Positions 2,613 through 63,105 of a DNA stretch of 64,000 bases are shown here, in pieces. The notes under the pieces are model-generated. The model was not told the origin of the DNA. It did not search any database and saw only the letters and a list, made by a program, of their open reading frames with translations. Position 1 is the stretch's first letter. The number at the start of each line of letters is the position of its first letter. Location of the stretch: positions 97,590,001 to 97,654,000 of the forward strand of contig CM059432.1 of the NCBI GenBank assembly GCA_030390025.1. Direction: 5' to 3'. Position numbers and translations under genes: made by a program. This stretch comes from Squalus acanthias. Lineage: Eukaryota.

Positions 2613-3629
2613 CGCATCGGGCCAAAGTCATCTTTTTCCTCCCAAGCATGCTACACTTCCCAAGTTCAGTCTCATTTGGGAGATTGTTTGTACATTGCCT
2701 TCTCTCCTGGATTTCAATTCTCCCTGTCTTTGCTGTTGTTGAAGGTTTATTTATTCACCATGTTACAATTCTTCACGTCTAATATTGTAGATGATTATTC
2801 ATAATGGGGTAGATTTGAACTTGGACCACCTGGCGTAAAGGGGACAGTAGTGGCCTGAACATGATTGATTGCTCGGGTTATGCCGGCGCTCCAGCCACTG
2901 CCATTCTCAATGGGGGACCTTCTACTTGGTGGCCCGAGCACCTGCTTGTTTCAGATAGTCGGCCCTGTTAATATCAAATCGGGGTCCCTCGATTGAAATT
3001 TTGATGGACAACTGGGTGGAGTGTGCGCCATGCTGGCTTTACTGGACCAGGTTTACTGGATGGTACAGCAGAAGAGGCACCAAAAAGGTAAGTTTAAAAT
3101 TACACCTTCCAGCCGGCAACTTATGCTGCTGTATGCAGCCTTTTCTGCTAGGGTGCGCTTTAAATTGGCTCCCCAAGTGCCATAGTTCTGCTTCTCCTGC
3201 CCCCGTCACCACCCCCTCCTCCATGACTCCGCAACCGTTGGTAGGGTCAGTAGTAGGGCACATTCCCGGCACTTACATCAAATTCCTCGTGGATTTTCAG
3301 ATCTGTTATCTTTTTAACCTTTAATTTCCTACGTTTATTAATAATCCATGGGACTAAACAGCTGAGAGGTCGCACAACACCAGGTTATAGTCCAACAGTT
3401 TTATTAGACTAAACAGCTGCACCAGGATTCCCCACAGGAGTTCCCCAGTGGAAGATTGATGGAGCCCCCAAAGAAATGGAATGCACAGCTAAAAATGGCC
3501 ATTCGCAGCATTCCTCCAGGGTTTTCGCCAATCTTCCAGCAAGGTTATGGCAGGAGGCCATGAGAACCAGGCGGAGGCTCCCACGCTTGATTTGAAGCTG
3601 CAAGCAAAGTATGAAACCAACCGAGTCGA

Positions 3630-3767
3630 AGCAAAAACCAAAATATTGCAGATGCCAGAAATCTAAAATAAAAACAGGAAATGCTGGAAATACTCAGCAG
3701 GCCAGGCAGCATCTGTGGAGAGAGAAACAGAGTTAACGTTTCAGGTCGATCCCCTTTCGTCATAACG
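3630..3767 (-). mobile_element. Penelope pseudo-LTR fragment with a degenerate hammerhead motif
   Basis: Similar to 23794-23895. The core reads ATGACGA instead of CTGACGA and stem II is mismatched. Confidence 0.75.
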
Positions 3768-9449: not shown

Positions 9450-10981
9450 ATGGAGTTGGGAGGAGCATTCCGAAGAGTGTGGCGGGAGGTGGCTCAGCAC
9501 GTCTCCTCAAGGAGCCTGGTGCCGAGGAGTCACACTCAGTGTAGGAAGAAGTTCAACGATCTCACTTGGGTCGTAAGGGTGAGTGGATGCTTTTCAATAC
9601 CTCCACATCCCTCCATCTCAACTTCACTCTGTGGCCAGAGGGTTTAAAATCCCACATGCACAGCACTCATCCAAGACCTATGGCCATCTCATAAAAGACA
9701 CATGCACAATCCACACCTTGCATACATTAAGGGCTATTCAACTCTGGGAGGCACATCAGGCAAGCACATGGCTGCATACATTAAGGGCTATTCAACTATG
9801 GGAGGCACATCAGGCAAGCACATGGCTGCATACATTAAGGGCTATTCAACTATGGGAGGCACATCAGGCAAGCACATGGCTGCATACATTAAGGGCTATT
9901 CAACTACGGGAGGCACATCAGGCAAGCACTCACTTAGATGCTGTCCTTTTTCTTACAGGCCAAGCTCTCTCATAACAGGCGGGAGCAGCAACGCACGGGA
10001 GGAGGACTGGCTGACCTACACCCCCTAACCGATTTGGAGGTGAGAGTGCACAGGATCATTGCCAGCCAGGTCATAGGTGCCGTGGCCGCTGGAGAGGGCA
10101 GTTGTCACAATGGACAGCGAACTGGGAGATATTCGTGATGTCCCCAGTAGAAGCTTGAAAGGAGCCGCTGGCATAAAAATTCAGAGCCACTGTCACCTTC
10201 ACTGCCACCGGCGGAGATGTCCTGGTCCTGAGTTGAGGCTGCAGATCTGGTTGCAGCAGGTGGCAGAGCTCAGTGACCACCTCCTTGCTGAAGCTCAGCC
10301 TGCGGAAAAACTGCTCCTCAGACAAATGAAGGTATGAGAACTGCTCCCTGTATACCCTCGGAGGGTAAGGTCTCCTGTGCGGAGGCCTGTTGGCCCTCCT
10401 CCCTCTGGCCATATTTGCCTCTCTCTCTCTGCGCCTCTGCTGCCTCCGATTCTGCAGGTGCAGGACTACGCCCTGAGTCAGTGCAGCTCCCATAGTCTCT
10501 TCTAAATTGTTGGAATGAAGGTGAAATAAAAATGAACCTCCAAAGTGCTGCTCAGGACCCAAAACTTCTTCGCACAGCGTTGAATCTCTCCAGACGTCTC
10601 TCTCCCTCTCAACCTGCGTGGTACAAAAATTTAGCCGACAAGAAAAGGCAGGAAGCTGCCGCCTTTAAATAGCGCTCCCCCAGCCCCGTCCCGACTGGAA
10701 AACGTTCCCCTCTACCTTTCGTTCCTAGCGGCAGGCGGAAAGGCAGGGGGTGAAACTCAATATCCGGTCTGGGGCATTACCGGGGCGTTGCATGCTTGAC
10801 TGACGTCACGATCTGCGGGCGCAGGACATCATGGCGGTAGTGTTTAGCGCTGTCGCAAAACATCTGGTCAATTTTGCGAGTGGAACTAAACTCGCCACGC
10901 TCAGGCACTAAGTTCTTAGCGCCCCATTACCGCCCCCCGGAGGCGTTAACGGGAGGCGATAACCAACCAAATATTTCCCCC
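9450..10981. mobile_element. Internally deleted Harbinger: Myb exons 1-2 (+) joined to the 5' part of the transposase (-) and the right end
   Basis: QCRKKFNDL motif (9450-9647) and exon 2 AKLSHNRREQQRTGGG. Minus ORF 10071-10562 has YPPRVYREQFSYL..ALNFYASGSFQ. Colinear with 44244-48727. Confidence 0.9.
9719..9930 (+). repeat. 54-bp minisatellite, ~4 copies, in Myb intron 1
   Basis: Repeated unit TGCATACATTAAGGGCTATTCAACTATGGGAGGCACATCAGGCAAGCACATGGC. Confidence 0.95.
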
Positions 10982-13050: not shown

Positions 13051-15864
13051 ACAATTCTGTCTACATTATCATTCTGTCTTTGTTAGGAATACAAGTCTTC
13101 TTCTTCTTAGGCAGTCCCTCAGAACCGAGGATGACTTGCTTCCACACTAAAAATGGGTTCTCTGGTGACTGATGAGTCCAATGCGGGACCTACAGTATCT
13201 GTCACAGGTGGGGCAGATGGTGGTTGAAGGCGCGGGTGGGTGGGGTGCTTGGGTTGACGTGCGCTCCTTCCGCTGTTTGCGCTTGGTTTCCGCTTGCTCC
13301 CGGCGAAGAGACTCGAGGTGTTCGGCGCATTGCTGGTTAAAGAGGGAATTAACACAATTGTAAGGAAGGATATTAGCTCTGATGATGTGGAATCTGTATG
13401 GGTAGAACTGAGAAATACCAAGGGGCAGAAAACGCTAGTGGGAGTGGTGTATAGACTCCCAAACAGTAATACGGAGGTTGGGGATGGAATTAAAAGGGAA
13501 ATTAGAGAAGCGTGCAATAAGAGCACAGCAGTTATCATGGGTGACTTTAATCTACATATAGATTGGGCTAACCAAATTAGTAACAATACTGTGGAGGAGG
13601 AATTGCTGGAGTGTATACGGGATGGTTTCCTGGACCAATATGTCAAGGAACCAACTAGAGATCAGGCCATCTTAGACTGGGTATTATATAATGAGAAAGG
13701 ATTAATTAGCAATCTTGTTATGCGAGGCCCCTTGGGTCAGAGCAATCATAATATGATAGAATTCTTCATTAAGATGGAGAGTGAAGTAATTGACTCAGAG
13801 ACTAGGGTCCTGAATTTAAATAAAGGAAACTACGATGGTATGAGGTGCGAGTTGGGTAGGATTGATTGGGGAATGTCACTCAAAGGGTTGATGGTGGATA
13901 GGCAATGGCAAACATTCAAAGATCGCATGAATGAACTACAGATTTTGTTCATCCCAGTTTGGCATAAAAATAAAACAAAAAAGGTGACTCAGCCGTGGCT
14001 AACAAAGGAAATTAGGGATAGCATAAGATCCAAGGAGAGGACATATAAATTGGCCAGAAAAAGTAGAAAACCTGAGGATTGGGAGCAGTATAGGATTCAG
14101 CAAAGAACGACAAAGGGATTAATTAAAAGGGGGAAAATAGAGTATGAGAGTAAGCTTTCAGGGAACATAAAAACTGACTGTAAAAGCTTTTATAGATATG
14201 TGAAGAGAAAATGATTGGTGAAGTCAAGCATAGGTCCCTTGTAGTCAGAATCAGGGGAATTTATAATGGGGAACAAAGAAATGGCAGACCAATTAAATAC
14301 ATACTTTGGTTCTGTCTTCACAAAGGAGGACACAAATAACCTCCCAGAGATGTCGGGGAATATAGGGTCTAATGAGAGGGAGGAACTGAAAGAAATCAGT
14401 ATTTGTAGGGAAATAGTGTTAGGGAAATTGACGGGATTGAAGGCCGATAAATCCCTAGGGCCTGATAATCTACATCCTAGGGTACTTAAGGAAGTGGCCC
14501 TAGAAATAGTAGATGCATTGCTGGTCATCTTCCAAAATTCTATAGACTCTGGAACAGTACCCATGGATTGGAGGGTAGCTAATGTTACCCCACTATTCAA
14601 AAAAGGTGGTAGAGAGAAAACGGGGAATTATAGACCGGTAAGCCTGACATCGATAGTGGGGAAAATGCTGGAGTCCATTATAAAAGATGTAATAGCAGAG
14701 CACTTGGAAAACAGTGACAGGATCGGACAAAGTCAACATGGATTTACAAAAGGTAAATCATGCTTGACTAATCTACTGGAATTTTTTGAGGATGTAACTG
14801 GTAAAATAGATAAGGGAGAAGCAGTGGATGTGGTGTATTTGGACTTTCAGAAGGCTTTCGATAAGGTCCCGCATAAGAGATTAGCGTGTAAAGTTAAGGC
14901 ACATGGGATTGGGGGCAAGGTATTGACTTGGATAGAGAACTGGTTGTCCACAGAAAGCAAAGAGTTGGAATAAATGGGTCTTTTTCCGAGTGGCAGGCAG
15001 TGACTAGTGGGGTACCACAGGGATCGGTCCTAGGACCCCAGCTATTCACAATATATATTAATGATCTAGACGAGGGAATTGGATGTAATATCTCCAAGTT
15101 TGCAGATGACACAAAGCTGGGTGGCAGTGTGCGCCGTGAGAAGGATGCCGAGAAACTCCAGTATTATTTGGACAGGTTGGGTGATTGGGCAGAAGCATGG
15201 CAGATGCAATATAATGTGGATAAATGCGAGGTTATCCACTTTGGTGGCAAAAACAGGAAGGCAGATTATTATCTGAATGGCAATAGATTGGGAGAAGGGG
15301 AAGTGCAGCGAGACCTGGGTGTCCTTGTGCACCAGTCGCTGAAGGTAAGCATGCAGGTGCAGCAGGCGGTTAAGAAGGCAAATGGTATGTTGACCTTCGT
15401 AGCGAAAGGGTTCGAGTACAGGAACAAGGATGTCTTGCTGCAGGGCCTTGGTGAGACCACATCTTGAGTATTGTGTGCAGTTTTGGTCGTCTTATCTGAG
15501 GAAGGATGTTCTTGCCATGGAGGGAGTGCAGCGAAGATTCACCAGGCTGATACCTGGGATGGCAGGAATGACGTATGAGGAGAGATTGGGTCGATTGGGC
15601 TTATACTAGCTGGAGTTTAGAAGAATGAGAGGGGATCTCATTGAAACTTATACAATTCTAATAGGACTAGACAGACTAGATGCAGGAAGGATGTTCCCGA
15701 TGGCCGGGGAGTCCAGAACCAGGGGTCACAGTCTAAGGATAAGGGGTAAGCCATTTAGGACTGAGATGAGGAGGAATTTCTTCACCCAGAGAGTGGTGAA
15801 CTTCTGGAATTCTCTACCACAGAAGGCAGTAGAGGCCAATTCATTAAATATATTCAAGAAGGAG

Positions 15865-16161
15865 AAGTCGCACAACACCAGGTTATAGTCCAACAGATTT
15901 ATTTAAAATTACAAGCTTTCGGAGCTATCGATCGCCCCTTCTTCAGGTAAAGTTACTATGAGTGAATCTACAAAAATTCACAGAATATAAACACAGAAAA
16001 AATGCAGAGATACAATCTTTCCTTACATCAAAGACACACCAAGAGCACAGCCAAGACAATGAGATGTGTCCCAGGGGGTCCAACGTGTCAAATCCTGCTG
16101 TCTGCATATCCTCTCCATTTGGGTTTGTTTTTTGTGTTTGTTTTTTGTGTTTCTCCGCATC
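15865..16161 (-). mobile_element. 297-bp non-coding insertion carrying a hammerhead motif
   Basis: Flanked by the 15-bp duplication ATATTCAAGAAGGAG (15850-15864 / 16162-16176) of CR1 sequence. The left part matches 27335-27415. Confidence 0.85.
15909..15950 (-). ncRNA. Minimal type I hammerhead ribozyme motif (family B)
   Basis: Minus strand: ttac CTGAAGA a ggggc gatcgata gctcc GAAA gc t t gtaa. Confidence 0.7.
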
Positions 16162-18192
16162 ATATTCAAGAAGGAGTTATATATATTTCTTAAAGCTAAA
16201 GGGATCAAGGGATATGGAGAGAAGGCAGGGACAGGGTACTGAATTTGGATGATCAGCCATGATCTCATTGAATGGCGGAGCAGGCTCGAGGGGCTGAATG
16301 GCCTGCTCCTGCTCCTATCTTCTATGTTTCTATGTTTCTATGTTTCCCGAATGCTTCTCCTCCACTTTGTGTAGTCTTGGGCCGGGGATTCCCAGGTGTC
16401 GGTGGGGATGTTGCACTTTTTCACGGAGGCTTTAAGGGTGTCCTTGAAGCGTTTCCTCTGCCCACCTGGGGCTGTCTTGCTGTGTCGGAGCTCCGAGTAG
16501 AGCGTTTGTTTTGGGAGTCTTGTATCGGGCATGCGGACAATGTGGCCCATCCATCGGAGCTGATCGAGCGTGGTCAAAGCTTCGATGCTTGGGATGTTGG
16601 CCTGAGCGAGAATACTGACGTTGGTGCACCTATCCTGCCAATGGATTTGCAGGATCTTGCGGAGGCAGCGTTGGTGGTACCTCTCCAGTGCTTTGAAGTG
16701 CCTGCTGTACATGGTCCATGTCTCTGAAGCATACAGGAGGGCGGGTATTACTACTGCTCTGTAGACCATGAGCTTGGTGCTGGGTTTGAGGTCCTGGTCT
16801 TCAAACACTCTCTTCCTCAGGCGACCGAAGGCTGCACTGGCACACTGAAGGTGGTGTTGGACTTCGTCATCGACGCCTGCCCTTGTTGACAGTAGGCTCC
16901 CGAGGTATGGAAAGTGGTTCACGTTGTCCAAGGCCTCGTCATGGATTTTGATAATCGGGGAGCAGTACTCTTTGGTGGGGGCAGGTTGGTAGAGGACTTT
17001 TGTCTTACAGATGTTTAGTGTAAGTAAGGCCCATGCTCTCGTACGCTTCGGTGAAGGTGTTGACGATGGTTTGGAGTTCGACCTCAGAGTGTGCTCAGAT
17101 GCAAGCGTCGTCTGCATACTGTAGCGCAGTCAAGACCACCTACGGCCCAAGCACCCAAGGTCCTACCCCACTGTGGGCTAAGGTAATCATCAAGGACAGA
17201 GAGGCAGTCAGTGCCCGCTGGAAGGAACACTTTGAAGACCTCCTTAACCGAGACTGTTTTCGACGTGAGTGTCCTCAACTCCATCCCTCAGCATGCTACC
17301 CGCCACCACCTCAGCACAACCCCAGCCCAGCATGAGGTTGAAAAGGCCATCCGACAACTGAAGAACAACAAGGCCTCAGGAGCAGATGGAATCCCCGCCG
17401 AGGCACTAAAACATGGCGGAGAAGCACTATTGGCGTGAATACATGAACTCATTTTTCTTATTTGGAAGGAGGAGAGCATGCCAGGGGATCTCAGAAAAGC
17501 CATAATCGTGACCATCTTCAAGAAAGGTGACAAGTCCGATTGCGGTAATTACAGAGGAGTCTCCCTGCTGTCTGCCACAGGGAAAGTCATCGCAAGAATC
17601 CTCCTCAATCGCCTTCTCCCAGTGGCTGAAGAGCTCCTTCCAGTGTCGCAATGTGGATTCCGCCCACTAAGGGGCACAATGGACATGATCTTCACCACGC
17701 GTCAACTCCAAGAGAAATGCAGGGAACAGCACCAACCGCTGTACATGGCCTTCTTTGACCTCCCAAAGGCCATCGACACTGTCAACTGTGAGGGATTATG
17801 GAGTGCCCTCCTCAAATTCGGCTGCCCTCAAAAGTTTTTCACCATCCTCCGCCTGCTTCATGATGACATGCAAGCTGTGATCCTGACCAACAGATCCACC
17901 ACAGACCCAATTCACGCATGGATCGGGGTCAAGCAAGGCTGTGTCATCGCACCAACGCTCTTCTTGATCTTCCTAGCTGCAATGCTCCATCTCACCATCC
18001 GTAAGCTCTCCGCTGGAGTGGAGCTAATCTACAGAACAAATGGGAAACTGTTCAACCTCCGTCGCTGCCAGTCCAGATCCAAGGTCGTCCCATCCTTTTT
18101 CATCGAATTACATTAGGAATACAAGTAATGTAAAAACAAATTGATATTCTTACGGAGCATTGAGAGAGAATGAGGAAGAAAGGGCAAGAGAG

Positions 18193-22064: not shown

Positions 22065-22580
22065 AAGAAAGAATTAACATTTTTACATTCTCAGAACATC
22101 CAAATCACTTCAGGACCAATGAATTAATTTTGAGAGGTAATCAATTACTTTGCTAATTAGGCAAATGCAGCAACAAACCTTCACACAGCAAGGGCCCACA
22201 AAAAACAAAGCAAAGCAAAATGTGGTGAATGTTGGGGACCTGAAAAAAACAGAAAATGCTGAAAAAACTCAGCAGGCCAGGCAGCATCTGTAGAAGAAGG
22301 AACTGACCTGCTGCCTGACCTGCTGAGAGTTTCCCACAAGCAGCAATTGAACAAATGACCTGTTAATCTGTTTTAGAGGTGTTGTTGAGGAAACAATTTT
22401 GGCCAGGGCACCAGGAGTACACCTGCTCTTCATTGAATAGTACCATGGGATCTTTTATGTCTATCTGCTCAGGCAGATGGGGCTTCAGTTAAGTATCTCA
22501 TCTCTGACAATGCAGTACTCCCTCAGTGTTAGCCGAGATTATGTACTCAAGGCTAGCTTGAACTCACTACCTCCTGACAC
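22065..22580 (-). mobile_element. Degenerate SacSINE1-like DeuSINE interrupted by a Penelope terminal fragment (~22205-22335)
   Basis: Similarity to 58780-59242 and to 23794-23850. Confidence 0.6.
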
Positions 22581-23858
22581 AGAAATTGAGATATGTTGGA
22601 TTTGAATATACTGGAACAAATCCCTCCAATACATGGGACTAACATGCACTGTAAAAAATGGATCTAGCATGCACTTCACATGCTCCGCCCATTTATGCAT
22701 GAAAATTGCAATCAGAGTCCTACAATCATCTACTCCCTTCCTGATAGTCATTGGTATTTTTTGGGAAATTCTCTTCATTCCTACTGTTAGAATCTATGGG
22801 GTTGAATCTCTATGAGGGTTCTCCCAATTGTCCACTTTGGGAGAAGATCCGTGGAAGCCGTGCAAGAAATGTGAAAAACGCCATTTATGCTGTTTCTCCA
22901 GAGTTTCCGCGAATCTTCCACTAAAGTTACACTGGACAATCGGATGAACTTGCATGGAAATTTGTTATGTAAGGGATCTGAAGTTGCACTGTGGAGCACT
23001 ACTGTAGGGATGCTTAATGTGTTTGTCGAAAATTCCAGAGATATTAATCCATTTTTTTAACTCTTCTGCTAATATAGGAAGAGGTTAGCAGAAGTTTTTT
23101 TTTATCTAGACTGAAATACAGAGTTTTTTTTACAGGATATAAAATGCTCTACCAGAAACAGCAATGGAAGCAAAATTACTAACAGCTTTTAAAAAGGAAT
23201 TAGACAAATATTGGAAAAGAAAAGGGAGGAGACTAGAACTAAATGAGAGCTGATACAGATGGAATGGGCCTAATGGCTTCCTTCTGTGCTGTACTGTTCT
23301 ATGATTGTATGTTTAAGGTATCCTATGTTGCAATCACAGTGCCAGAGAAAGAATTTTTTAAAAGCCTGACAGCCAATCAAGTCCTTTTTTTCTGTAGACC
23401 ATGTGCAATCAGCCGAATTGCAAATGCCACCAAATCTATTTAATCTACGTAGCAAAAGTTCCGTGTAAATACCTTCCAAGGGTAATCGTTCAAAAGCATT
23501 TTTTCCTTTCAGTTTGGAAGATTTCAATATCGGAATCAAAAATTAACAAACCAACATCTGCTGTCTGGCAACATTTTACAGTTGAATCAGATTATGAAAT
23601 TAGTTTACAAACATTGAGAGTCTGCAGTTAACAAAGGATAAAAGGCAATAAACCTGGAAACAATAGTGCTAACAGCATGGGATAAAACAAAATATTAGAA
23701 AAACCCAGCGGGGTAGAAATTGGACCTTATTATGACCATTTTACACCCAAAAGACGCCTGAAAGACATCCGACCCGATGTTGTAGTTAACGAGAAATAAC
23801 AACAGAAAACGCTGGAAAAACTCAGCAGGCCAGGCAGCATCCGTGGAGAGAGAAACAG

Positions 23859-23895
23859 AGTTAACGTTTCAGGTCGAAGACCTTTCGTCAGAACT
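23859..23895 (-). ncRNA. Minimal type I hammerhead ribozyme motif (family A) in the Penelope 3' pseudo-LTR
   Basis: Minus strand: agtt CTGACGA a aggtc ttc gacct GAAA cg t t aact. Confidence 0.75.
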
Positions 23896-24208
23896 GGAAA
23901 AAAGCAGGAAATGGAATAGATTTTAAAGCAAGTTTAGGGGCTGGGAAAAGGGGGAGGGGATGAAAGAACAAAAGGGAAGGTCAGTGATAGGATAGCAAGC
24001 AGGAGAGATCAAGAGACATGGAGAGACATTAAGAGATATTCAAGGCAAGAGGAGGTGGTAATGGGACAGGTTAAGGAACAAAGGATGGCTCTAGATGAAG
24101 TGTGAATTGTGCTGGCAGAATGAAGGACAGCTGCTGTGTGGGAGGGAAGAAAAAAAGGCCAAACAAAAGTGTGGATAAAAAAATATATATATGTGATAGG
24201 GACCGAGG

Positions 24209-26940
24209 TTATGATCTGAAATTGTTGAACTCTATGTTGAGTCCAGAGGGCTGTAAAGTGCCTAATCGAAAGATGAGATGCTGTTCCTCGAGCTTACGCT
24301 GCGCTTCCGTGGAACAATGCAAGAGGCTGAGTATGGTGAGGTCTGATTGGGAATAGAGCAGTGAATTAAAGTGACAGGCCACCGGGAGCTCGGGGTCCCC
24401 CTTACGGACTGAACGGAGGTGTTCCGCAAAGCGGTCACCCAATCTGCGTTTGGTCTCCCCAATTTAGAGGAGACCACATCGTGAGCAGCGAATACAGTAT
24501 ACTAAATTGCAAGAAGTACAAGTAAATCGCTGTTTCACCTGGGAGGGGTGTTTGGGGCCCTGGACAGTGGGAAGGGGGGAGGTATAGAGGCATGTGTTGC
24601 ATCTCCTGTGCTTGCACGGGAAGGTGCCGGGCGAAGGGGAAGGGGTGCTGGGGGTGGTAGAGGAGTGGACTAGGGTGTCGCGGAGGGAGTGGTCCCTATG
24701 GAATGCTGAAAGGGGAGGTGAGGGGAAGATGCGTTTGGTGGTGGGATCACGCTGGAGGTGGTGGAAATGGTGGAGGATGATCCATTGAATGTGGAGGCTG
24801 GTGGGGTGAAAGGTGAGGACAAGGGGAACTCTATCGTGGTTCCGGGAGGGAGGGGCAGGGGTGAGGGCAGAAGTGCGGGAGATAGAACGGACACAGTCGA
24901 GGGCCATGTCAACCACAGTAGAGGGGAATCCTCGGTTGAGGAAAAAGGAAGACATGTCGGAAGCACTGGTATGGGAGGTGGCGTCATCAGAGCAGATGCG
25001 GCGGAGATGGAGAAACTGGGAGAATGGAATAGCGTCCTTACAGGAGGCGGGGTGGGAGGAAGTGTAATCCAGGTAGCTGTGGGAGTCATTGGGCTTGTAG
25101 TGAATGTTTGTCAATAGCCTATCCCCAGAGATGGAGAAGGAGAAGTCGAGGAAGGGAAGGGAAGATTCAGAGATGGACCATGTGAAGGTGAGGGAAGGGT
25201 GGAAATTGGAAGCAAAGTGAATGAAATTTTCTAGTTCAGGGTGAGAGTAGGAGATGGCACCGATACAGTCATCAATGTACCAGAAAAAGAGGTGAGGGAG
25301 GGGACCCGAGTAGGACTGGAACAAAGAGTGTTCCACATATCCCACGAAAAGGCAGGCATAGCTAGGACCCATCCGGGTACCCATAGCAACACCTTTGATT
25401 TGGAGGAAATGAGTGGAGTCAAAGGAGAAGTTGATCAATGTGAGAACAAGTTCAGCCAGGTGGAGGAGGGTGGTGGTGGATGGGGACTGGTTGGGCCTCT
25501 GTTCAAGGAAGAAGCGGAGCGCCCTCAGGCCATCCTGGTGGGGAATGGAGGTGTAGAGGGATTGTACGTCCATAGTGAAAAGGAGGCGGTTGGGGCCGGG
25601 AAACTGGAAACTGTTAAAGTGGCGGAGGGCATCGGAAGAGTTGCGGATGTAGGTGGGAAGAGACTGGACAAGGGGAGAAAAAATAGAGTCGAGATAGGAA
25701 GAGATAAGTTCCGTGGGGCAAGAACAGGCTGAAACGATGGGTCTACCAGGGCAGTCCTGTTTGTGGATCTTGGGAAGGAGGTAGAAGCGGGCTGTGCGGG
25801 GTTGGGGATCTATGAGGTTGGCGGCCGTGGGGGGAAGATCTCCAGAGGAGATGAGGTCAGTGACAGTCTTGGAAACGGTGGCTTGATGTTCGGTAGTGGG
25901 GTCATGGTCCAGGTGGAGGTAGGAGGAGGTGTCGGAGAGTTGGCGTTCAGCTTCCGCTAGGTAGAGGTCGGTTCGCCAAACAACCACAGCACCACCCTTG
26001 TCAGCAGGTTTAATGACAATGTTGGGGTTGGATCTGAGAGAATGGAGTGCTGCAAGTTCAGAGGGAGGTAGGTTGGAGTGAGTGAGGGGAGCAGAGAAAT
26101 GGAGATGGCCGATGTCACGCCGGCAGTTTGCAATGAAAAGATCTAGAGAGGGTAAGAGGGCAGAGGGAGGGGTCCAAGTAGAACGAGAATTCTGAAAGCG
26201 GGAGAAAGGGTCAGCTGTACGGGGGGAAGACTCCTGGCCAAAGAAGTGGGCACGGAGGCGAAGGCGACGGAAAAAGAGCTCAGCATCGTGCCGAGCTCGA
26301 AATTCATTGAGATGGGGGCGTAAGGGGATGAAGCTCAGGCCTTTGCTGAGGACTGATCGTTCGGGGTCAGAGAGGGGAAGGTCAGAGGGGATAGTGAAAA
26401 CGCAGCAGGGGGTGAGATTGGGAGAAGGGGGGTCAGAGGAAAGTGAAGGGGAAGAACGTTCTGGAGGGGCGTTGGTGTTCAAGAGTTGTTGAAGCTTGCG
26501 ATCCTTGACATCAGAAAGGAAGAAAAAAAGTTTTTTGTTGAAGCGTTGGATGAGTCGAAGGATGAAATGGAACTGTGGGCCCGGACAGCTTTGAGATAGA
26601 GTGCGTCGGTGCTGCTGAAGAGAGAGGTCGAGAATGTTCATGTGGTGCCACATGGCGTTGAGTGTGGATCTCAAGATGCGGCGAGAGCAGTAGTTCGAGG
26701 AACGATGAATATCTTGGAGATATTTGTAATCCTGGGTGGATCCAAAACACGAAGGGTGGAAGTTTAGTTGGAATCCACGTGGAATAAGTCGGAACCGGAG
26801 ACAGTTGCTGAGGAAAGAGATGTGGCAGATACCTGATCAAACACGAGAAGGGAAACTGAAAGCAATGAAGATGAACAAGGTTGAAGAGACAAACGGAAAT
26901 CCCGTCGAAGAGAAGAGCAGAACTTCTTCAAGGTGGGCAT
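24209..26940 (-). pseudogene. Penelope RT / GIY-YIG endonuclease polyprotein with one N-terminal frameshift and one stop in the YIG motif
   Basis: 736-aa ORF 24464-26674 (KPADKG, LPKIHK, RPIVS, DVQSLYT, GVAMG, YIDD, FLD) ends LVYCIRCSRCGLL*. It continues in frame as IGETK..RFAEH to 24209. ATG at 26940. Confidence 0.92.
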
Positions 26941-27287
26941 TCCTAGAAGAGAGGTGGCAGTGAACCAAACACTAATACAATAGCAAAATACTGCGGATGC
27001 TGGAAATCCGAAATAACAACAGAAAACGCTGGGAAAACTCAGCAGGCCTTCATAGTCCCAGCATGGACCATTACCTTTCAATAGCACAGACTGGATTTGG
27101 CTCTGCACTTACTATGATTTTCAGACCAATTCGCAGGATAATGTGGGAAACGCACACCAAATGTCCAGTATTCACTCTCAGTTGGTGAGGAGCAGAAGTT
27201 TGGAAAATTACTCCTCAACCGTTCACTAACTATGTGAAATGTGAGAAAAACATATAAAATTAAAATTGTGATGGCTGGTCAAAGTAG

Positions 27288-27495
27288 CCATGATGTGGAG
27301 ATGCCGGTGTTGGACTGGGGTGGACAAAAGTGAGAAGTCGCACAACACCAGGTTAGAGTCCAACAGCTTTATTTGAAATCACAAGCTTTCGGAGCGCTGC
27401 TCCTTCGTCAGGTGACGAAGGAGCAGCGCTCCGAAAGCTTGTGATTTCAAATAAAGCTGTTGGACTATAACCTGGTGTTGTGCGACTTCTCACTT
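27288..27495. mobile_element. 208-bp Penelope-type terminal element with an inverted repeat and hammerhead motif (27379-27415, minus); duplicate copy at ~30436-30642
   Basis: 12-bp TSD TGGTCAAAGTAG (27276-27287 / 27496-27507). Near-perfect ~83-bp-arm inverted repeat at 27327-27496. Confidence 0.85.
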
Positions 27496-28732
27496 TGGTC
27501 AAAGTAGTTCTTTATGCATGAGCAGTAGCAATTATTTTCAGGCTTAGGTTCTTTCTGAATTGGGCCCAACTTGGATATATCTTGGCTTAATATGAACTGG
27601 CACAAGTTATTTTTCTTTTAAGTGTGGAAATCATTTGATGCTTTTTCTGACTGATATATATCATTTTTACTGAGTTTAATTCAGCCATTCTGTTATTTCT
27701 AGAATATAAAGGGTTGTTAAAATCAGTGCTTGTATACATTAAACAGGTAAAGTTTATTCTGTGATTAACATGTGAGCCAGCCTGCAATGTTTTTCTCTCC
27801 AATTCAGCAGAATGAGTTACATTAAAGGAAGTTACAGATAAGACAGGGATCTCTGTTAAATGCTGGAGTCACTTTCATGATGCAATGTTAGCATATTGCA
27901 TAGTTCAAAGATCAGAATAGCACCTTGTAAGGAATGATTGCCACTAACAATATATGCAGTATCATGAGGAATAGATCTTATTTTGAGTGTGTTGCTTTGC
28001 ACACTCCCTAAGTCTAATGATGCCTACTTAAATTCAGCTTAGTGTCTAACATTCTGTTCCTAGGTAGAAACATCTACTCACACATTCATTGCCCTGTAAA
28101 AGCTGTTGATCAACTTAGTCAGTTCCAATGAAAACAATCTCAGAGCTGCTCTCGCTCTGCCACTGTAACTTTACCAGACGTGCAATGGAGGCTCCATTTA
28201 CTTTTGAGTTCTGAACCATGGAAGAGAACGGTTTGGATACATGTCCTTATATGCCCTGACCTGGAGTTTCCGCTAGGTTGCACTGTTTTTTTTAGCGCAA
28301 TTCAGCCGAAATCGGCCAAACCAGCGCAAAAGATCACGAAATTTCAAGCGCAAATTAGGTCCAACGTAAATCGAGTTTCCGCGATCTTATGCGCTAATTC
28401 AAAAAAAATCGCACTGGAAGCTGGCCCCACCCACAAAACTGGTCACGCGCCCAAATCGAATTAATCACCATGGCGAGATTCCACTAATTGAGCCCGTTTG
28501 CGGGCCTTCAAGGAGGCTTTAAAAATTAAGCTTTTTTTTAGGCACAAGGGCACTAATAGGTACCTTTTAAAAACATTTGAATATTAAAAAATATTTGATT
28601 TAGTCAGAAACTGACTAGTGTACACCAATGAAACTAGCAAATGGTTCTGTATAGTTTTTTAAAGTCATTTTCAATTACTTAAAATCGGGTTACGCACAGG
28701 TGGTGGACTAGACATTGATTAAAAATGCTGTT

Positions 28733-30196
28733 GGCGGTTGGGGCCGGGAAACTGGAAACTGTTAAAGTGGCGGAGGGCATCGGAAGAGTTGCGGATGTAG
28801 GTGGGAAGAGACTGGACAAGGGGAGAAAAAATAGAGTCGAGATAGGAAGAGATAAGTTCCGTGGGGCAAGAACAGGCTGAAACGATGGGTCTACCAGGGC
28901 AGTCCTGTTTGTGGATCTTGGGAAGGAGGTAGAAGCGGGCTGTGCGGGGTTGGGGATCTATGAGGTTGGCGGCCGTGGGGGGAAGATCTCCAGAGGAGAT
29001 GAGGTCAGTGACAGTCTTGGAAACGGTGGCTTGATGTTCGGTAGTGGGGTCATGGTCCAGGTGGAGGTAGGAGGAGGTGTCGGAGAGTTGGCGTTCAGCT
29101 TCCGCTAGGTAGAGGTCGGTTCGCCAAACAACCACAGCACCACCCTTGTCAGCAGGTTTAATGACAATGTTGGGGTTGGATCTGAGAGAATGGAGTGCTG
29201 CAAGTTCAGAGGGAGGTAGGTTGGAGTGAGTGAGGGGAGCAGAGAAATGGAGATGGCCGATGTCACGCCGGCAGTTTGCAATGAAAAGATCTAGAGAGGG
29301 TAAGAGGGCAGAGGGAGGGGTCCAAGTAGAACGAGAATTCTGAAAGCGGGAGAAAGGGTCAGCTGTACGGGGGGAAGACTCCTGGCCAAAGAAGTGGGCA
29401 CGGAGGCGAAGGCGACGGAAAAAGAGCTCAGCATCGTGCCGAGCTCAAAATTCATTGAGATGGGGGCGTAAGGGGATGAAGCTCAGGCCTTTGCTGAGGA
29501 CTGATCGTTCGGGGTCAGAGAGGGGAAGGTCAGAGGGGATAGTGAAAACGCAGCAGGGGGTGAGATTGGGAGAAGGGGGGTCAGAGGAAAGTGAAGGGGA
29601 AGAAGGTTCCGGAGGGGCGTTGGTGTTCAAGAGTTGTTGAAGCTTGCGATCCTTGACATCAGAAAGGAAGAAAAAAAGTTTTTTGTTGAAGCGTTGGATG
29701 AGTCGAAGGATGAAATGGAACTGTCGGCCCGGACAGCTTTGAGATAGAGTGCGTCGGTGCTGCTGAAGAGAGAGGTCGAGAATGTTCATGTGGTGCCACA
29801 TGGCGTTGAGTGTGGATCTCAAGATGCGGCGAGAGCAGTAGTTCGAGGAACGATGAATATCTTGGAGATATTTGTAATCCTGGGTGGATCCAAAACACGA
29901 AGGGTGGAAGTTTAGTTGGAATCCACGTGGAATAAGTCGGAACCGGAGACAGTTGCTGAGGAAAGAGATGTGGCAGATACCTGATCAAACACGAGAAGGG
30001 AAACTGAAAGCAATGAAGATGAACAAGGTTGAAGAGACAAACGGAAATCCCGTCGAAGAGAAGAGCAGAACTTCTTCAAGGTGGGCATTCCTAGAAGAGA
30101 GGTGGGAGTGAACCAAACACTAATACAATAGCAAAATACTGCGGAAGCTGGAAATCCGAAATAACAACAGAAAACGCTGGAAAAACTCAGCAGGCC
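28733..30196 (-). mobile_element. Duplicated 5' half of the Penelope element
   Basis: Copy of 25585-27048 with a new stop at 29445. Confidence 0.92.
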
Positions 30197-31126
30197 TTCA
30201 TAGTCCCAGCATGGACCATTACCTTTCAATAGCACAGACTGGATTTGGCTCTGCACTTACTATGATTTTCAGACCAATTCGCAGGATAATGTGGGAAACG
30301 CACACCAAATGTCCAGTATTCACTCTCAGTTGGTGAGGAGCAGAAGTTTGGAAAATTTCTCCTCAACCGTTCACTAACTATGTGAAATGTGAGAAAAACA
30401 TATAAAATTAAAATTGTGATGGCTGGTCAAAGTAGCCATGATGTGGAGATGCCGGTGTTGGACTGGGGTGGACAAAAGTGAGAAGTCGCACAACACCAGG
30501 TTAGAGTCCAACAGCTTTATTTGAAATCACAATCTTTCGGAGCGCTGCTCCTTCGTCAGGTGAAGGAGCAGCGCTCCGAAAGCTTGTGATTTCAAATAAA
30601 GCTGTTGGACTATAACCTGGTGTTGTGCGACTTCTCACTTTTGGTCAAAGTAGTTCTTTATGCATGAGCAGTAGCAATTATTTTCAGGCTTAGGTTCTTT
30701 CTGAATTGGGCCCAACTTGGATATATCTTGGCTTAATATGAACTGGCACAAGTTATTTTTCTTTTAAGTGTGGAAATCCATTTGATGCTTTTTCTGACTG
30801 ATATATATCATTTTTACTGAGTTTAATTCAGCCATTCTGTTATTTCAAGAATATAAAGGGTTGTTAAAATCAGTGCTTGTATACATTAAACAGGTAAAGT
30901 TTATTCTGTGATTAACATGTGAGCCAGCCTACAATGTTTTTCTCTCCAATTCAGCACAATGAGTTACATTAAAGGAAGTTACAGATAAGACAGGGATCTC
31001 TGTTAAATGCTGGAGTCACTTTCATGATGCAATGTTAGCATATTGCATAGTTCAAAGATCAGAATAGCACCTTGTAAGGAATGATTGCCATTAACAATAT
31101 ATGCAGTATCATGAGGAATAGATCTT

Positions 31127-31867: not shown

Positions 31868-32148
31868 CTTATTTTGAGTGTGTTGCTTTGCACACTCCCT
31901 AAGTCTAATGATGCCTACTTAAATTCAGCTTAGTGTCTAACATTCTGTTCCTAGGTAGAAACATCTACTCACACATTCATTGCCCTGTAAAAGCTGTTGA
32001 TCAACTTAGTCAGTTCCAATGAAAACAATCTCAGAGCTGCTCTCGCTCTGCCACTGTAACTTTACCAGACGTGCAATGGAGGCTCCATTTACTTTTGAGT
32101 TCTGAACCATGGAAGAGAACGGTTTGGATACATGTCCTTATATGCCCT

Positions 32149-32883
32149 GACCTGGAGTTTCCGCTAGGTTGCACTGTTTTTTTTAGCGCAATTCAGCCGA
32201 AATCGGCCAAACCAGAGCAAAAGATCACGAAATTTCAAGCGCAAATTAGGTCCAACGTAAATCGAGTTTCCGCGATCTTATGCGCTAATTCAAAAAAAAT
32301 CGCACTGGAAGCTGGCCCCACCCACAAAACTGGTCACGCGCCCAAATCGAATTAATCACCATGGCGAGATTCCACTAATTGAGCCCGTTTGCGGGCCTTC
32401 AAGGAGGCTTTAAAAATTAATCTTTTTTTTAGGCACAAGGGCACTAATAGGTACCTTTTAACAACATTTGAATATTAAAAAATATTTGATTTAGTCAGAA
32501 ACTGACTAGTGTACACCAATGAAACTAGCAAATGGTTCTGTATAGTTTTTTAAAGTCATTTTCAATTACTTAAAATCGGGTTACGCACAGGTGGTGGACT
32601 AGACACTGATTAAAAATGCTTATTTTTTGTGATAAACCCATTTTCAACAAGTTACCACTTTTAAATATATGAAGGAAAATTTTTTGAAACAAAATCTTAA
32701 AAAAAAAATTACCTTCTAAAACGCTGCCTGATTGCACTGGTTGATGGCAGATTTTGCCTTCGGCGATATGCAAATGAGTTTGAGGGAAAACTCGGGGCAG
32801 AAAACACTTTTCAAAGCGAGCGCAATTTTGGGAGCAATTTGCACTGGAAATGCCGATTGCGCCCAAAGTGGAAACTCAAACCC
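32149..32883. mobile_element. Harbinger-type MITE (truncated duplicate at 28258-28729)
   Basis: Imperfect TIRs GACCTGGAGTTTCCGCT / AGTGGAAACTCAAACCC. TSD not matched. Confidence 0.6.
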
Positions 32884-44600: not shown

Positions 44601-46760
44601 ATGGAGAGGGTGAGAGAACGCGCTCATCGCTTCACCGAGCGGGCCTTGGATGCTCTGGTTGACGCAGTGGAGCGCAGACGATGCATGCTGTTCCCAGAGA
44701 GTGGCAGGAGGCCTTTGCCACGCGAGTTCAGAAGAGTGTGGAGGGAGGTGGCTCAGAGCGTCTCCTCCAGGAGCATGGTGCCCAGGACCCATGTCCAGTG
44801 CCGCAAAAAGTTCAACGACCTCACTCGGGTCGTCAGGGTGAGTGGCTTTTTCTCAATACCTCTCCATCCCTCCATCTCAACCTCACTCTATGGCCAGAGG
44901 GTCTGAAAACCCCAATGCACAACACTCATCCAACACCTATGGCCCTTTCATCAAACACACACACACATTCCACACTTTGCATACAGTAAGGGCTATTCAC
45001 CTATGGGAGGCACATCAGGCAAGACCATGGCTGCATACAGTAAGGGCTATTCACCTATGGGAGGCACATCAGGCAAGACCATGGCTGCATACAGTAAGGG
45101 CTATTCACCTATGGGAGGCACATCAGGCAAGACCATGGCTGCATACAGTAAGGGCTATTCACCTATGGGAGGCACATCAGGCAAGACCATGGCTGCATAT
45201 TGTAAGGGCTATTCACCTATGGGAGGCACATCAGGCAAGACCATGGCTGTATATTGACTCAGATGCTGTCCTTTTTCTTGCAGGCTAAGCTGGCTCATAA
45301 TCGGAGACAGCAGCAACGGACGGGTGGAGGGCGGCTTCAGCTGCAACCCCTCAGCGATCTGGAGGAGCGCGTCCACAGGATTGTGGCAAGCCGGGTGATC
45401 GGTCCCGTCGCCACTGGAGACGCCGACTCCGTTGTGGACAGCAATGGTAAGGTCATCACCTTTTTGTCCTCTGTCCTTCCACTTGTCCCTCACAATACCA
45501 GCCTTTGACACTTTCAATCCAACTTGCTAACTCGCTGCACTTATTCCTCCCTTACTGCCACCCTGTCCTCACGCTAAAGCCACTCTTGTACCTCCCTGCT
45601 TTCAGATGGTGATTCACCAGCTGAGGAGATGGTCCCTGAAGCTGCCACTGGGAGTGATGCTGCAGCTGAGGAGGAAGAGGAAGCCGGAGCATCAGTGCCA
45701 CCCTCTCCCGAGGAAGCCCATGGCCACACTGGGAACACGCCTTCCCCGGAGGGGAGCAGGGGGGAAGGGGCTGATGATGGTGAAGTTCCAGGACCCAGCG
45801 GGCTGCAGCAACGCCATGGGGGGGGGGAGGGAAGAACGGGGGAGCAGGGGGGAAGGGGCTGATGATGGTGAAGTTCCAGGACCCAGCGGGCTGCAGCAAC
45901 GCCATGGGGGGGGGAGGGAAGAACGGGGGAGCAGGGGGGAAGGGGCTGATGATGGTGAAGTTCCAGGACCCAGCGGGCTGCAGCAACGCCATGGGGGGGG
46001 GAGGGAAGAACGGGAGCCTTCTCCCCAGAGGGAGAGTATGCCAGACACTCCTAATGCAATGGACGCAGAGGAGGAGCGGATGATTGCAGAAATGAACAGC
46101 CAGGCGGTGGTCATGCACACTGAGCTCATGGGTGCAGTGGGAAGGGTGCCCGAATGCATTGAGGCACTGGCAAGGAGTGTGGAGCACTTCGCTGTAGCAC
46201 AGGCGGATGCCATACTAAAGCTTACTGCTGCAATTCAGTCACTGGCTGCCAGGAACCCATCTGAGCCTGCTCTCATGCAGACTCAGATTGAGGCCACGCG
46301 AGCACTGACTGCTGCCATCCTCGATGGTTCGTGCACATGTCCCCGGGGCTGTCACCGCGCCGCAGCAGGCCAGCAATCTGTTCTCAGGCAAATTGCTCCG
46401 GATGCTGAAGTGCTGCCCCGTGGGAGTGCCAGTGTGTCGGGCGAGCAGGGAGTTGCTGTCCTCTCTCACGATGACAGCATTCCTGCTGCCAACACTGTCA
46501 CTTCTCCACTGCACTTGCCACCGCCTGTAGGACAGACTGCTGCCGCCCATGCAGAGTTGGTGCAGTCTGCAGCCGGGCCCTCCAGGCCCAGAAGTGGTCG
46601 AGGCCGTCCTTCAGGGGCATCTGCAGTGTCAGGGTCTGACAAGCAGCAGCCTTCCACCAGCCTTGCTGCAGCCACTGAGGTCCCATTACGGAGGAGCAGT
46701 AGGGTTAGAAGGGGGGAAGTGCGCAAGGGAAGGAGATCACCCTCGAAGGGCAAAAAGTAG
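44601..46760 (+). CDS. Harbinger Myb/SANT-like DNA-binding protein, 3 exons (44601-44837, 45284-45446, 45606-46760), +1 G in a homopolymer at ~45818-45827
   Basis: RF....L..LV..V, W..VA and QCRKKFNDL trihelix motifs. GT-AG introns with compatible phases (0 and 1). Basic C-terminus resembling an NLS. Confidence 0.85.
44978..45250 (+). repeat. 54-bp minisatellite, 5 copies, in Myb intron 1
   Basis: Unit TGCATACAGTAAGGGCTATTCACCTATGGGAGGCACATCAGGCAAGACCATGGC. Confidence 0.95.
45751..46017 (+). repeat. 87-bp coding tandem repeat, 3 copies (29 aa)
   Basis: GSRGEGADDGEVPGPSGLQQRHGGGREER repeated; G runs of 10, 9 and 9. Confidence 0.95.
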
Positions 46761-47054: not shown

Positions 47055-48215
47055 CTAGAAGCGGCTTGCTATTAGTCGTTGACGGACGGCCCTTGCAGTT
47101 TGACCATTGTGGGCCGCCCTCCTGCCTTGGTGCTGCTGCTGATCATCGTCCTCGGCCTGTTCCTCCTCTTCCTCCTCCTCCTCTTGTGGTGCTGCAAGGC
47201 CTGGTGGCATTGGCTGCGTCCTGAGGATTGCCATGTTGTGCAACATGCAGCACACCACTACGAATTTGGAAACTTGCTCAGGCGAGTACTGCAGGGCTCC
47301 TCCGGAATGGTCCAGACAGCGGAATCGTTGTTTGAGCACGCCGATTGTGCGCTCAATAATGTTCCTCGTTGCTTGTTGGCTTTCCTGGTACCGCAGCTCA
47401 GCAGGGGTGTTTGGCGCACGGAGCGGTGTCATCAGCCAGGTGCTCAATGCGTACCCCTTGTCCCCCAGAAGCCAACCAACTGGCTGATGCGGTGCCTCGA
47501 AAATTTCTGCCACAGTACTCTGGCGCAGGATGAAAGCATCGTGGCAGCTGCCCGGATAGTGGGCATTGACAGCGAGAATCACCTGTCTGTGGTCACAGAC
47601 CAACTGCACATTCAAGGAATGGAACCCCTTTCTGTTCCGGAACTCCTCTGCATTCTCTCGCGGAGCACGCAAAGCCACATGCGTGCAGTCAATGGCGCCC
47701 TGCACCATGGGGAAGCCCGCTACCCTCGCAAAGCCCATAGCACGGTCATGCTGCTTGTCTGGGGTCATAGGGAAGGAGATGAAGTCTCGTCTCCTTGTGA
47801 AGAGGGCATTGGTGACCTGCCGGATGCAGCGATGCACCGCAAACTGGGAGATATTGGCGAGGTCCCCAACAGCAGCTTGGAATGAGCCAGTGGCGTAGAA
47901 GTTCAAGGCCACTGTGACCTTCACTGCCACCGACAGAGACGTCCTGGACCTCAGCTGAGGCTGCAGATCTGGCTGCAGCAGGTGGCAGAGCTCAGTGACC
48001 ACCTCCTTGCTGAATCGCAGCCTTCGCAAACACAGCTCCTCGGACATGTGGATGTAGGAGAACTGTTCACGATATACCCTGGGAGGGTAAGCTCTCCTGT
48101 ACATGCGCCTGATGGGCCTCCTCCGTCTGGCCATCATTGCCACTCTCTGTCTGCGTCTCACTCTGCTCCGATTGAGCTGGAGCAGGACGACGCCCCCAAT
48201 CATTGCAGCCCCCAT
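47055..48215 (-). CDS. Harbinger DDE transposase (HARBI1-like), 386 aa, uninterrupted
   Basis: [57 protein letters not shown], acidic tail. Confidence 0.95.
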   Translation of the reverse strand: MGAAMIGGVVLLQLNRSRVRRRQRVAMMARRRRPIRRMYRRAYPPRVYREQFSYIHMSEELCLRRLRFSKEVVTELCHLLQPDLQPQLRSRTSLSVAVKVTVALNFYATGSFQAAVGDLANISQFAVHRCIRQVTNALFTRRRDFISFPMTPDKQHDRAMGFARVAGFPMVQGAIDCTHVALRAPRENAEEFRNRKGFHSLNVQLVCDHRQVILAVNAHYPGSCHDAFILRQSTVAEIFEAPHQPVGWLLGDKGYALSTWLMTPLRAPNTPAELRYQESQQATRNIIERTIGVLKQRFRCLDHSGGALQYSPEQVSKFVVVCCMLHNMAILRTQPMPPGLAAPQEEEEEEEEQAEDDDQQQHQGRRAAHNGQTARAVRQRLIASRF

Positions 48216-50129
48216 CTTCTCTTTGCCAGAAAAGTAATGAGGTACAGCAACGAAAGTAGCAGCAAAGTTAGGATGAACTAGGCAAAACTACCTCACAAAG
48301 CGTTGAGTCAATGTAGAAGTCTCTCTCTCTCTCTCTCCGAATCTCTCTCTCTCTCTCAGAACGAGTGGTGCATAAATGTCGACCACAGAAAAAGACAGGA
48401 AGAGGCCCCCTTTAAATAGCGCCCCCCCCAGCCCCAGACCGATTGATAACGTTCCAGTCTTCCGGTCGTTGGAAGCGCCAGGCGGTAAGGCAGGGGGCGC
48501 CACTCAATTTCCGCTCCGGGGCGCCCCAAGGGCGTTGCACCACGGACTGACGTCACAATCTGCGTGCGCAGGTGGTCGCAGCGGTAAGTTTTAGCGCCGC
48601 CGCACAATCTCAAGTTAAGTTCTCGAGCGGCGCAAACAGCGCTGCGCCCGGGCGTTAGCGCCTTAACGCCCCATTAGCGCCCATTTAAGGCGCTAACGGG
48701 AGGCGCAACCAACTGAATTTTTACCCCTATGCCTCTATTTATAAAGCCCATGATCCCATATGCTTTATTAACTGCTTTGTTAACCTGTCCTTCAACCCTC
48801 AAAGATTTGTGCGCAAACACCCCCAGGTCTCTCTGTTATGGCACCCCTTTTAAAATTGTACCATTTAGTTTGTATTCTTCCTACCAAATGCATCACCTTA
48901 CACTTTTCATCATCCATGTGTCCGCCCATTCTCCTAGCCTGTTTATGTCCTTTTGAAGTCTATTGCTATGTTCCTCACTGTTTACTACACTTCCAAGTTT
49001 TGTATCATCTGCAAATTTTGAAATTGTGCCCTGTACCCCTAAGTTCAAGTCATTAATGTATATCAAAAACAGCAGTGGTCCTAGTACTGAACCCTGGAGA
49101 GCACCACTGTATACCTCCTTCCAGTCCAAAAAACAGCCATTCGCCACAACTCTCTGTTTTCCATCCCTTAGCCAATTTTGTATTCATGCTACTACATGCC
49201 CCCTTTATCCCATGGGCTTTAATTTTGCTAACAAGCCTAATATGTGCTACTTTATCAAACGCCTTTTGAAAGTCCATATACACAAAATCAACTACACTGC
49301 CCTCATTCACCCTCTCTGTTATCTCATTAAAAAACACAATTAAATTAGTCAATCACGATTTGCCCTTAACAATTCTGTGCTGGCTCTCCTTTATTAGTTC
49401 ATGCTTGTCCAAGTGGCTGTTGATTTTTTCCAGGATTATTGTTTCTAAAAGCTTCCCCACTACTGACATTAAAGTGACTAGCCTATGATCTCCAGGTTTA
49501 TCCTTCTCCCCTTTTTTGAACAAGGGTGTAACATTTGCAATCCTTCAGTCCTCTGGCGCCATCCCTGTATCTAAGAAGGATTGGAAAATTATGGCCAGCA
49601 CCTCCATAATTTCTACCCTTACTTCCGTCAGCAACCTAGGATGCATCCCTTCTGGAAGAGGTGACTTATCTACTTTAAGTAGTGCCACCCTTTCTAGTAC
49701 CTCCATGCACGCTCATTACGCGCTGGAGGTGCGCTGCCTGGCATCCTGGATTGGGCTCCTCCCTTGGTGTCCTTGGCGCATACCAGAACTATTTAAATTG
49801 CTGACTAAAATATGTCACTTAGGGTCCTATCTTGTTGTGGGATTCTTTTGTGATATTGGGCTGCCCCAGCGCCTAACTCCCAATGTGATAAACTCACCTA
49901 GAAACTCGTAGTGTTAACAGATAGGAAGGATCCTTCAGCAGCGCTATTTAAAGGGCTCAGCCATTACATACAGGTTAGTTGCTGGTTTGACATTTGAGGA
50001 TGCTGGATAACTTCTGGTCACTTTTTGGCCTGTTTTCTGACTTAGAGAACTGATTTCTGACTGCTGATAAAAAGTTCTTGCTGGTGCTGGATTGGTTTTG
50101 GCTGATTTCTGAACAGTTTTGCTGCAGCC

Positions 50130-54518: not shown

Positions 54519-54815
54519 CACACAAATAGTCACAAGGGTAGTCACTTGGGTGTTTTGATCTAATATAAAGTGAAGATTGTCATCATTATTTCAATTGTAA
54601 GAAAGAAATGCGATGGCAAAGATTCAAAGAGTTGGCCTATGTGTGCCCAGAAATGGAAGTATCACAGTGAGGGGTCAGGGCGCCTTTCATCTGTAATGAT
54701 GGTGGTGAGAGTGATAGGAACCCACAGTTTATTGTACAGATGCTGTATGGTGTATTAAGAAGGTTGGCCAGACACTCATTTTCATGTGGCAGCCACATGT
54801 GTTTGCTTCTAAAGC

Positions 54816-62971: not shown

Positions 62972-63105
62972 AAAAGCAAAATACTACAGATGCTGGAAAT
63001 CTGAAATAAAAACTGAAAATGCTGGAAATACTCAGCAGATCAGGCAGCATCTGTAGAGAGAGAAACAGAGTTAATGTTTCAGGTCGATGACCTTTCATCA
63101 GAACT
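62972..63105 (-). mobile_element. Penelope pseudo-LTR fragment with hammerhead motif (63069-63105)
   Basis: agtt CTGATGA a aggtc atc gacct GAAA ca t t aact. The stem III palindrome is lost by CpG-type decay. Confidence 0.75.

Follow-up and report, generated by a model that had tools for sequence, protein, structure and literature searches.

Penelope-like elements (PLEs) leave a recognizable signature, i.e. 5' truncation, inverted copies and an optional tail of 30-40 bp (PMC8557442, PMC3846280, PMC8969392; here and below each source is cited for a part of its text), and reverse transcription starts internally, at two sites that are marked by the PLE tail (PMC11167929). Covarying minimal hammerhead ribozymes are the rule in autonomous PLEs, and most minimal hammerheads of metazoans are single motifs, for which a relation to truncated PLEs is probable (Cervera & De la Pena 2014, PMC4209133). 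These minimal ribozymes cleave weakly and as dimers (PMC4209133; Lunse et al. as cited in PMC6765202), and in PAc, a Poseidon PLE from Anolis carolinensis, hammerhead mutants left insertion in vitro unchanged and cleavage needed protein (Frangieh et al. 2024, PMC11167929). Kin to the PLE termini (pLTRs) are the non-LTR retrozymes, of which solo monomers have been described and which are present in one chondrichthyan (Cervera & de la Pena 2020, PMC7229834; Li et al., bioRxiv 10.64898/2026.07.22.740005).

Here we analyse a hammerhead-bearing insertion in a window of 64,000 nt from Squalus acanthias (contig CM059432.1, positions 97,590,001 to 97,654,000; "the window" denotes this whole stretch), which a first-pass annotation had read as a separate non-autonomous retroelement. 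With a probability of about 0.6 we regard it as a 5'-truncated retrocopy of the 3'-terminal ~300 nt, i.e. 3' UTR/pLTR, hammerhead and start of the tail, of an abundant PLE subfamily.

Results

The insert (15865-16161, 297 bp) is flanked by an exact 15-bp target site duplication (TSD), ATATTCAAGAAGGAG, located at 15850..15864 and 16162..16176 of the plus strand; the repeat cannot be extended and occurs twice in the whole window. The final 3 nt of the left copy, GAG, also fit the element's tail, i.e. the left boundary is ambiguous by 3 nt, and this microhomology lies at the priming end. The host is a LINE (13258..16341, plus strand) for which Pfam itself gives domains only, namely APE endonuclease and RT fragments upstream of the insert, and which we take, by recognition, to be of the CR1 type. 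The insert sits near the end of its ORF2 in the opposite orientation. That ORF2 had been interrupted by a 297-bp insertion with a 15-bp TSD is confirmed not only by the exact repeat, but also by the reading frame, which continues from the left to the right flank across the empty site, by a CR1 paralog at 42.3 kb that aligns straight over this site, and by the empty-site joint 15849->16162, which is among the joints listed in two of four runs.

On its minus strand the insert carries a minimal type I hammerhead of the PLE type (15909..15950), with the cut predicted after the U at 15913. Stem I, TTAC/GTAA, comprises 4 bp (15950-15947 pairing with 15909-15912), the core is made up of CUGAAGA (15946-15940), an additional A at 15939 and GAAA (15920-15917), stem II, GGGGC/GCUCC, has 5 bp including one G-U pair and is closed by a loop of 8 nt, and stem III is the palindromic AGCU with U17 at 15913. 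The core pattern CUGANGA ... GAAA ... UH, the unpaired base between positions 9 and 10.1, the G10.1-C11.1 pair and the palindromic helix III are thus all present. Rfam yielded no hammerhead family at E<=1 for the window or E<=10 for the insert, and the ribozyme call therefore rests on the motif descriptor and on pair counts. A descriptor scan of the whole window gave six hammerhead-like sites, five of which have tight stems and were used (15946, 23891, 27411, 30559 and 63101, all on the minus strand), a loose plus-strand match at 4031 being left out of the pair counts. Across the five motifs 45 of 45 cells in helices I and II are paired, as compared to 18-42% in slid controls, and seven of nine pairs show double-sided compensatory change, most of it between two families, while covariation inside the insert's own family comprises one double-sided and one one-sided change.

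The differences to the copy at 27379-27415 were recovered as first described: stem I covaries (TTAC/GTAA in the insert versus TCAC/GTGA), stem II keeps its pairing via a G-U while the loop changes in length, and only N7 differs in the core (CTGAAGA in the insert versus CTGACGA). Selection on structure, which had been proposed on these grounds, stands for the source lineages, in which the stems are kept, but inside the family covariation is limited to one base pair. U17 is found in all five motifs and is a poor cleavage base. In the full insert stem I has a pairing probability of 0.24-0.29, and a homodimer cofold, whose lowest-energy form is not the active dimer, is uninformative. The copy at 30559 has lost the helix III palindrome, showing that genomic copies decay.

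The hammerhead is followed by a PLE tail (15865..15908, minus strand) that reaches the short 3' end of its family and that, over 15862-15921, is identical to the 27.4-kb copy at 57 of 60 nt. This tail has been inserted three times independently in 64 kb, the insertions being 42, 208 and 297 bp long with TSDs of 13, 12 and 15 bp, respectively. The shortest is a tail-only stub without hammerhead (3365..3406, minus strand; 3352-3419 with flanks), whereas the second is a fold-back insertion of hammerhead and tail (27288..27495, no strand assigned), one arm of which is long-tailed (+44 nt) and the other short-tailed. The 3' termini of all three coincide to within 5 nt or, for the long tail, lie 44 nt beyond this position. 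The fold-back recurs at about 30436-30641 via a 99.2% segmental duplication, and the two versions differ at their centre. The local duplications (25585-27979 = 28733-31126, 99.2%; 27977-28729 = 31868-32620, 99.5%), which copy the 5' part of a PLE, are either recent or an assembly artefact.

Among the three tail insertions both 5' truncation and inverted copies with TSDs are present, and the family has the order of hammerhead and tail with an optional 44-nt extension. The series of 42, 208 and 297 bp hence fits the PLE pattern of truncation, inverted copying and optional tail and argues for a truncated origin of the insert; by analogy to this signature we infer that the tail family has an ORF-bearing parent. 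Moreover, as the 42-bp and 208-bp insertions have TSDs of their own, being short and flanked by a TSD is not sufficient evidence for an independent element.

A near full-length PLE lies at 23793-27048 (minus strand) and comprises an RT frame of 790 codons, a GIY-YIG region interrupted by an in-frame stop, a hammerhead at 23891 and a tail in which the element's own 5' start recurs. Its hammerhead is of the same design as that of the insert, but its tail is different, i.e. this PLE is not the parent of the insert. It is instructive as to length, however: 317 nt separate its stop codon from its hammerhead versus 215 nt of non-coding part in the insert, and a truncated copy of the insert's length would thus likewise lack an ORF. 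The endonuclease part of this PLE is matched by 27 proteins among 86 candidates, those named by species being from sharks, skates and rays, which supports an origin of the window in a cartilaginous fish. Two database proteins, P0015 (shark receptor-transporting protein 3-like) and P0028 (skate DCC isoform), contain pieces of PLE endonuclease, reflecting exonisation or a gene-model error. Stubs of the same second PLE family are found at 62971-63105, 3634-3766 and 22229-22294, and the hammerhead descriptor detects only the one at 63 kb. Apart from PLEs the window contains related open frames at 47055-48287 (minus), 54809-55885 (plus) and 10071-10981 (minus), which by eye resemble Harbinger-type transposases and whose adjoining frames may be a partner gene, as well as tandem repeats of 54 bp and about 87 bp inside related repeat elements (9719-9929, 44978-45253 and 45751-46014).

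Upstream of the hammerhead the insert consists of a body, putatively 3' UTR/pLTR (15951..16105, minus strand), and an A-rich, low-complexity 5' part (16106..16161, minus strand), which contains a 13-nt duplication and in which sister subfamilies diverge. The ~210 bp beyond the hammerhead had been called unique, which turned out to hold inside the window only, where the body has no second copy; elsewhere it recurs in many copies, which fall into sister subfamilies, are seen in organisms A, B and C and are deepest at about 16015-16100. The insert is present in 20 of 24 listed runs (organism codes A-F), in 19 of them with at least half of its words, and since tail and hammerhead make up less than a third of the insert, such shares must include the body. 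Contigs of runs X3, X8, X7 and X6 (organisms A, A, C and B, respectively) were aligned to the insert at 85% likeness, run X20 (share 0.15) being left out; all 30 bins of the insert are covered in each of the four runs, and contigs span the junction of hammerhead and body. These observations bear on the idea that a PLE tail once took along 210 bp of single-copy host DNA. PLE pLTRs can indeed mobilise unrelated DNA (PMC3846280), and the single occurrence in the window would agree with such a capture, but the many contigs with subfamily variants over the body in 4/4 runs, the bridged junction and the word shares in 19 of the 24 runs largely refute it, leaving it a very small probability.

The sister subfamilies differ directly upstream of the hammerhead and past 16092-16106, and they carry different hammerhead alleles. 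Variants listed at a frequency of at least 5% affect N7 (A/G/C), one base of stem II (G-U -> A-U) and the loop (two changes). The outer base of stem I also varies, which breaks the outer pair unless the partner changes, and no partner change is among the variants listed. The invariant core bases in 15909-15950 are free of variants listed at >=5%, a hint at constraint that, with five variable positions, is suggestive and not significant (about 0.2 by hand estimate). Depth summed over contigs does not translate into copy number, and X7 and X8 are labelled as RNA by guess, so that these data establish neither abundance nor expression.

Exact nucleotide patterns gave no matches, neither for the tail in genome, viral and metagenome contig collections nor for the body in metagenome contigs. 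ARAGORN reported 0 tRNA genes in 15700-16400, although a decayed head could escape it. The view that the insert is free of an ORF needs to be qualified, as one of the minus frames runs through 72 codons without a stop, yet this frame has no homologue: protein searches with two of the six frames of the insert returned none, and Pfam assigned 0 families. A motif in the 72-codon frame that resembles the C-terminus of GIY-YIG was rejected with a profile built from the window query and 25 homologues, which covers only close relatives of the window PLE: it ranks 513 of 60,766 positions, with about 0.8 expected among the 98 minus-frame positions, and none of the HMM scores was positive. Likewise discarded were descent of the body from the tail by inverted copying and decay (equal scores in 750 of 1000 shuffles, and anchored versions are reached by 7% and 12% of null windows), a relation to the 3' UTR of the window PLE (682 of 1000 shuffles score equally) and a hairpin at 15962-15981, whose pairs are broken by three listed variants. 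The insert has no global fold (z 0.36 for the minus and 0.10 for the plus strand), and a rod-like or viroid-like fold was dismissed on the same values.

A pyrimidine-rich AG is located directly upstream of the hammerhead in both the insert and the window PLE, and the Drosophila pLTR intron ends at a comparable pyrimidine-rich AG position (PMC4209133), a likeness that counts in favour of truncation. In the insert this AG is the acceptor of a candidate 59-nt GT..AG intron (16026-15968, minus strand), for which no spliced joint is among those listed in two runs guessed to be RNA.

The position of the 5' end is where the truncated copy and a discrete element would differ. In run X3 the summed depth amounts to 694k at the hammerhead, dips to about 40k over 15950-15975, peaks at 632k in the body and then declines to 150k at 16106-16118 and 8k at 16145-16157. 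With the reservation that summed depth is not copy number, this fall resembles a sharp border more than a slow tapering-off. Loose ends of sister subfamilies at 16106 in X8, X7 and X6 (5, 5 and 6 contigs) agree over about 14 nt and then differ, and could mark a fixed 5' end; no parent of the insert was seen, as there is no ORF remnant and, among the loose ends listed, none continues past 16161, which speaks against truncation. We also consider a discrete non-autonomous family of about 250-300 nt, SINE-like or a solo pLTR with a fixed 5' end, that is copied in trans by an autonomous PLE and retains the PLE hammerhead and tail as landing signal for the PLE protein. Besides the nearly level depth from the hammerhead to about 16100, the 57/60 identity of the tail to that of another family whose body differs argues for it, as does the missing coding trace, i.e. 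protein searches with two of the six frames and the GIY-YIG profile found no ORF remnant of the kind a truncated PLE might have left; moreover, non-autonomous PLE derivatives exist (PMC8557442; bioRxiv 10.64898/2026.07.22.740005). However, the depth drop coincides with a low-complexity, copy-specific duplication that is enough to stop contig alignment, each loose-end consensus is built from 5-6 contigs only, a tRNA head is missing according to ARAGORN, and the 42-bp stub implies that length varies freely in the tail family. The depth edge and the loose ends near 16106-16145 fit a fixed 5' end and a variable low-complexity stretch alike. Taken together, we consider a discrete family possible, but less probable than truncation.

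One detail of the 5' junction was noticed post hoc: the final 10 nt of the insert together with 2 nt of the TSD correspond to the long tail end in inverted orientation (11/12). In the window 39 of 62,954 12-mers match the long tail end equally well, and the snippet gives no more than a lead that both nicks were primed. If the family was of fixed length, this inverted snippet of 10-12 nt may record a second priming from the long tail end, which would fit priming of both target strands.

Discussion

In the first-pass annotation the insert was a retrotransposed, protein-free and hammerhead-bearing element with ties to PLEs, and to this extent our analysis agrees. Its status as a separate non-autonomous element, by contrast, is called into question by the short stub with its own TSD and by the length of the UTR. 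We favour a truncated PLE copy, and by analogy to the Anolis PLE the following scenario can be outlined. The RT/GIY-YIG protein of a PLE would nick an AT-rich site with a stagger of 15 nt, and reverse transcription would be primed within the tail, some 50 nt 3' of the hammerhead, using 3 nt of microhomology. The template would be uncleaved RNA, as the ribozyme was copied intact, and a single retrotransposition event would end early, before the ORF was reached. The hammerhead of the insert would thus be a passenger, its stems being kept by selection on the source elements and not on this copy; in the source elements, cleavage is probably weak and occurs in dimers or with the help of protein.

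As an alternative, the insert might be a dispersed monomer of a non-LTR retrozyme, i.e. the product of tandem transcription, self-cleavage to unit length, circularisation and reinsertion. Its size would fit, given a range of 150-450 bp (PMC7229834) and an average of 363 bp in the one chondrichthyan tested (bioRxiv 10.64898/2026.07.22.740005), the motif is intact, and the runs guessed to be RNA contain the sequence. Nevertheless, the locus holds a single unit that lacks terminal redundancy, the 5' end of the insert does not carry on the tail in direct orientation, the cleavage site is at neither end of the insert, the motif is of the minimal PLE type with U17 and not of the canonical retrozyme type, and no stable global fold exists. 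Moreover, no head-to-tail joint is among those listed in four runs, a weak argument as the contigs are short. The tandem or circular version is thus not sustained, and we rate it as improbable, albeit not to the same degree as a one-off capture of host DNA.

PLE hammerheads and truncated solo ends, non-autonomous PLE derivatives and pLTR-related vertebrate retrozymes have been described already. Among the papers returned by our literature search none describes this particular shark family, although a related consensus may be contained in the supplementary tables of bioRxiv 10.64898/2026.07.22.740005. Read as a truncated PLE end, the insert extends a known pattern by a further family, and its significance lies chiefly in repeat annotation. 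More tentatively, it might belong to a high-copy, fixed-length non-coding family that is common to several cartilaginous fishes, relates to its PLE as a SINE does to a LINE, has a hammerhead and tail that are under selection in its different subfamilies, has a conserved body motif of its own, and is never tandem. A true family of fixed length would define the smallest RNA mobilised in trans by a vertebrate PLE protein and would offer a natural experiment on whether the life cycle requires the hammerhead, given that PAc mutants inserted normally in vitro (PMC11167929).

Among the known systems, the minimal hammerheads of metazoan PLE pLTRs (PMC4209133) are close counterparts of the ribozyme. 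Like that of the insert, they are of type I with 4 bp in helix I, a base left unpaired between 9 and 10.1, the pair G10.1-C11.1 and a palindromic 15.2-16.2, and they form covarying families of mostly single, dispersed motifs. In contrast, helix II has 7-8 bp in the Schistosoma families versus 5 bp in the insert, and no shark family was found in the part of that paper cited here. As covariation is usual in autonomous PLEs, it does not set the insert apart as a non-autonomous element. Non-LTR retrozymes (PMC7229834; bioRxiv 10.64898/2026.07.22.740005) resemble the insert in being non-coding, about 300 bp long and low in GC, with a type I hammerhead, a long TSD and kinship to PLE pLTRs. However, their definition asks for units in tandem and two or more complete hammerheads, whereas the insert consists of one unit that ends in a PLE tail. 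The non-autonomous Chlamys PLEs, e.g. MRC1 (Craig et al. 2021, PMC8557442), are short PLE partners that share the 3' end of an autonomous family, but unlike the insert they are algal, belong to a clade without canonical hammerheads and are often arranged head-to-tail.

For the insertion as a whole, PAc (PMC11167929) can serve as a comparison. It differs in that it has an attached ORF, in that priming occurs at a non-homologous site instead of at 3 nt of target-tail microhomology, and in the tail extension, which amounts to 30-40 nt versus 44 nt in the insert's family. In PAc as in the insert, though, the hammerhead is located upstream of the tail, and PAc and the insert's family have in common two alternative 3' ends, an AT-rich target and a hammerhead that is copied uncleaved.
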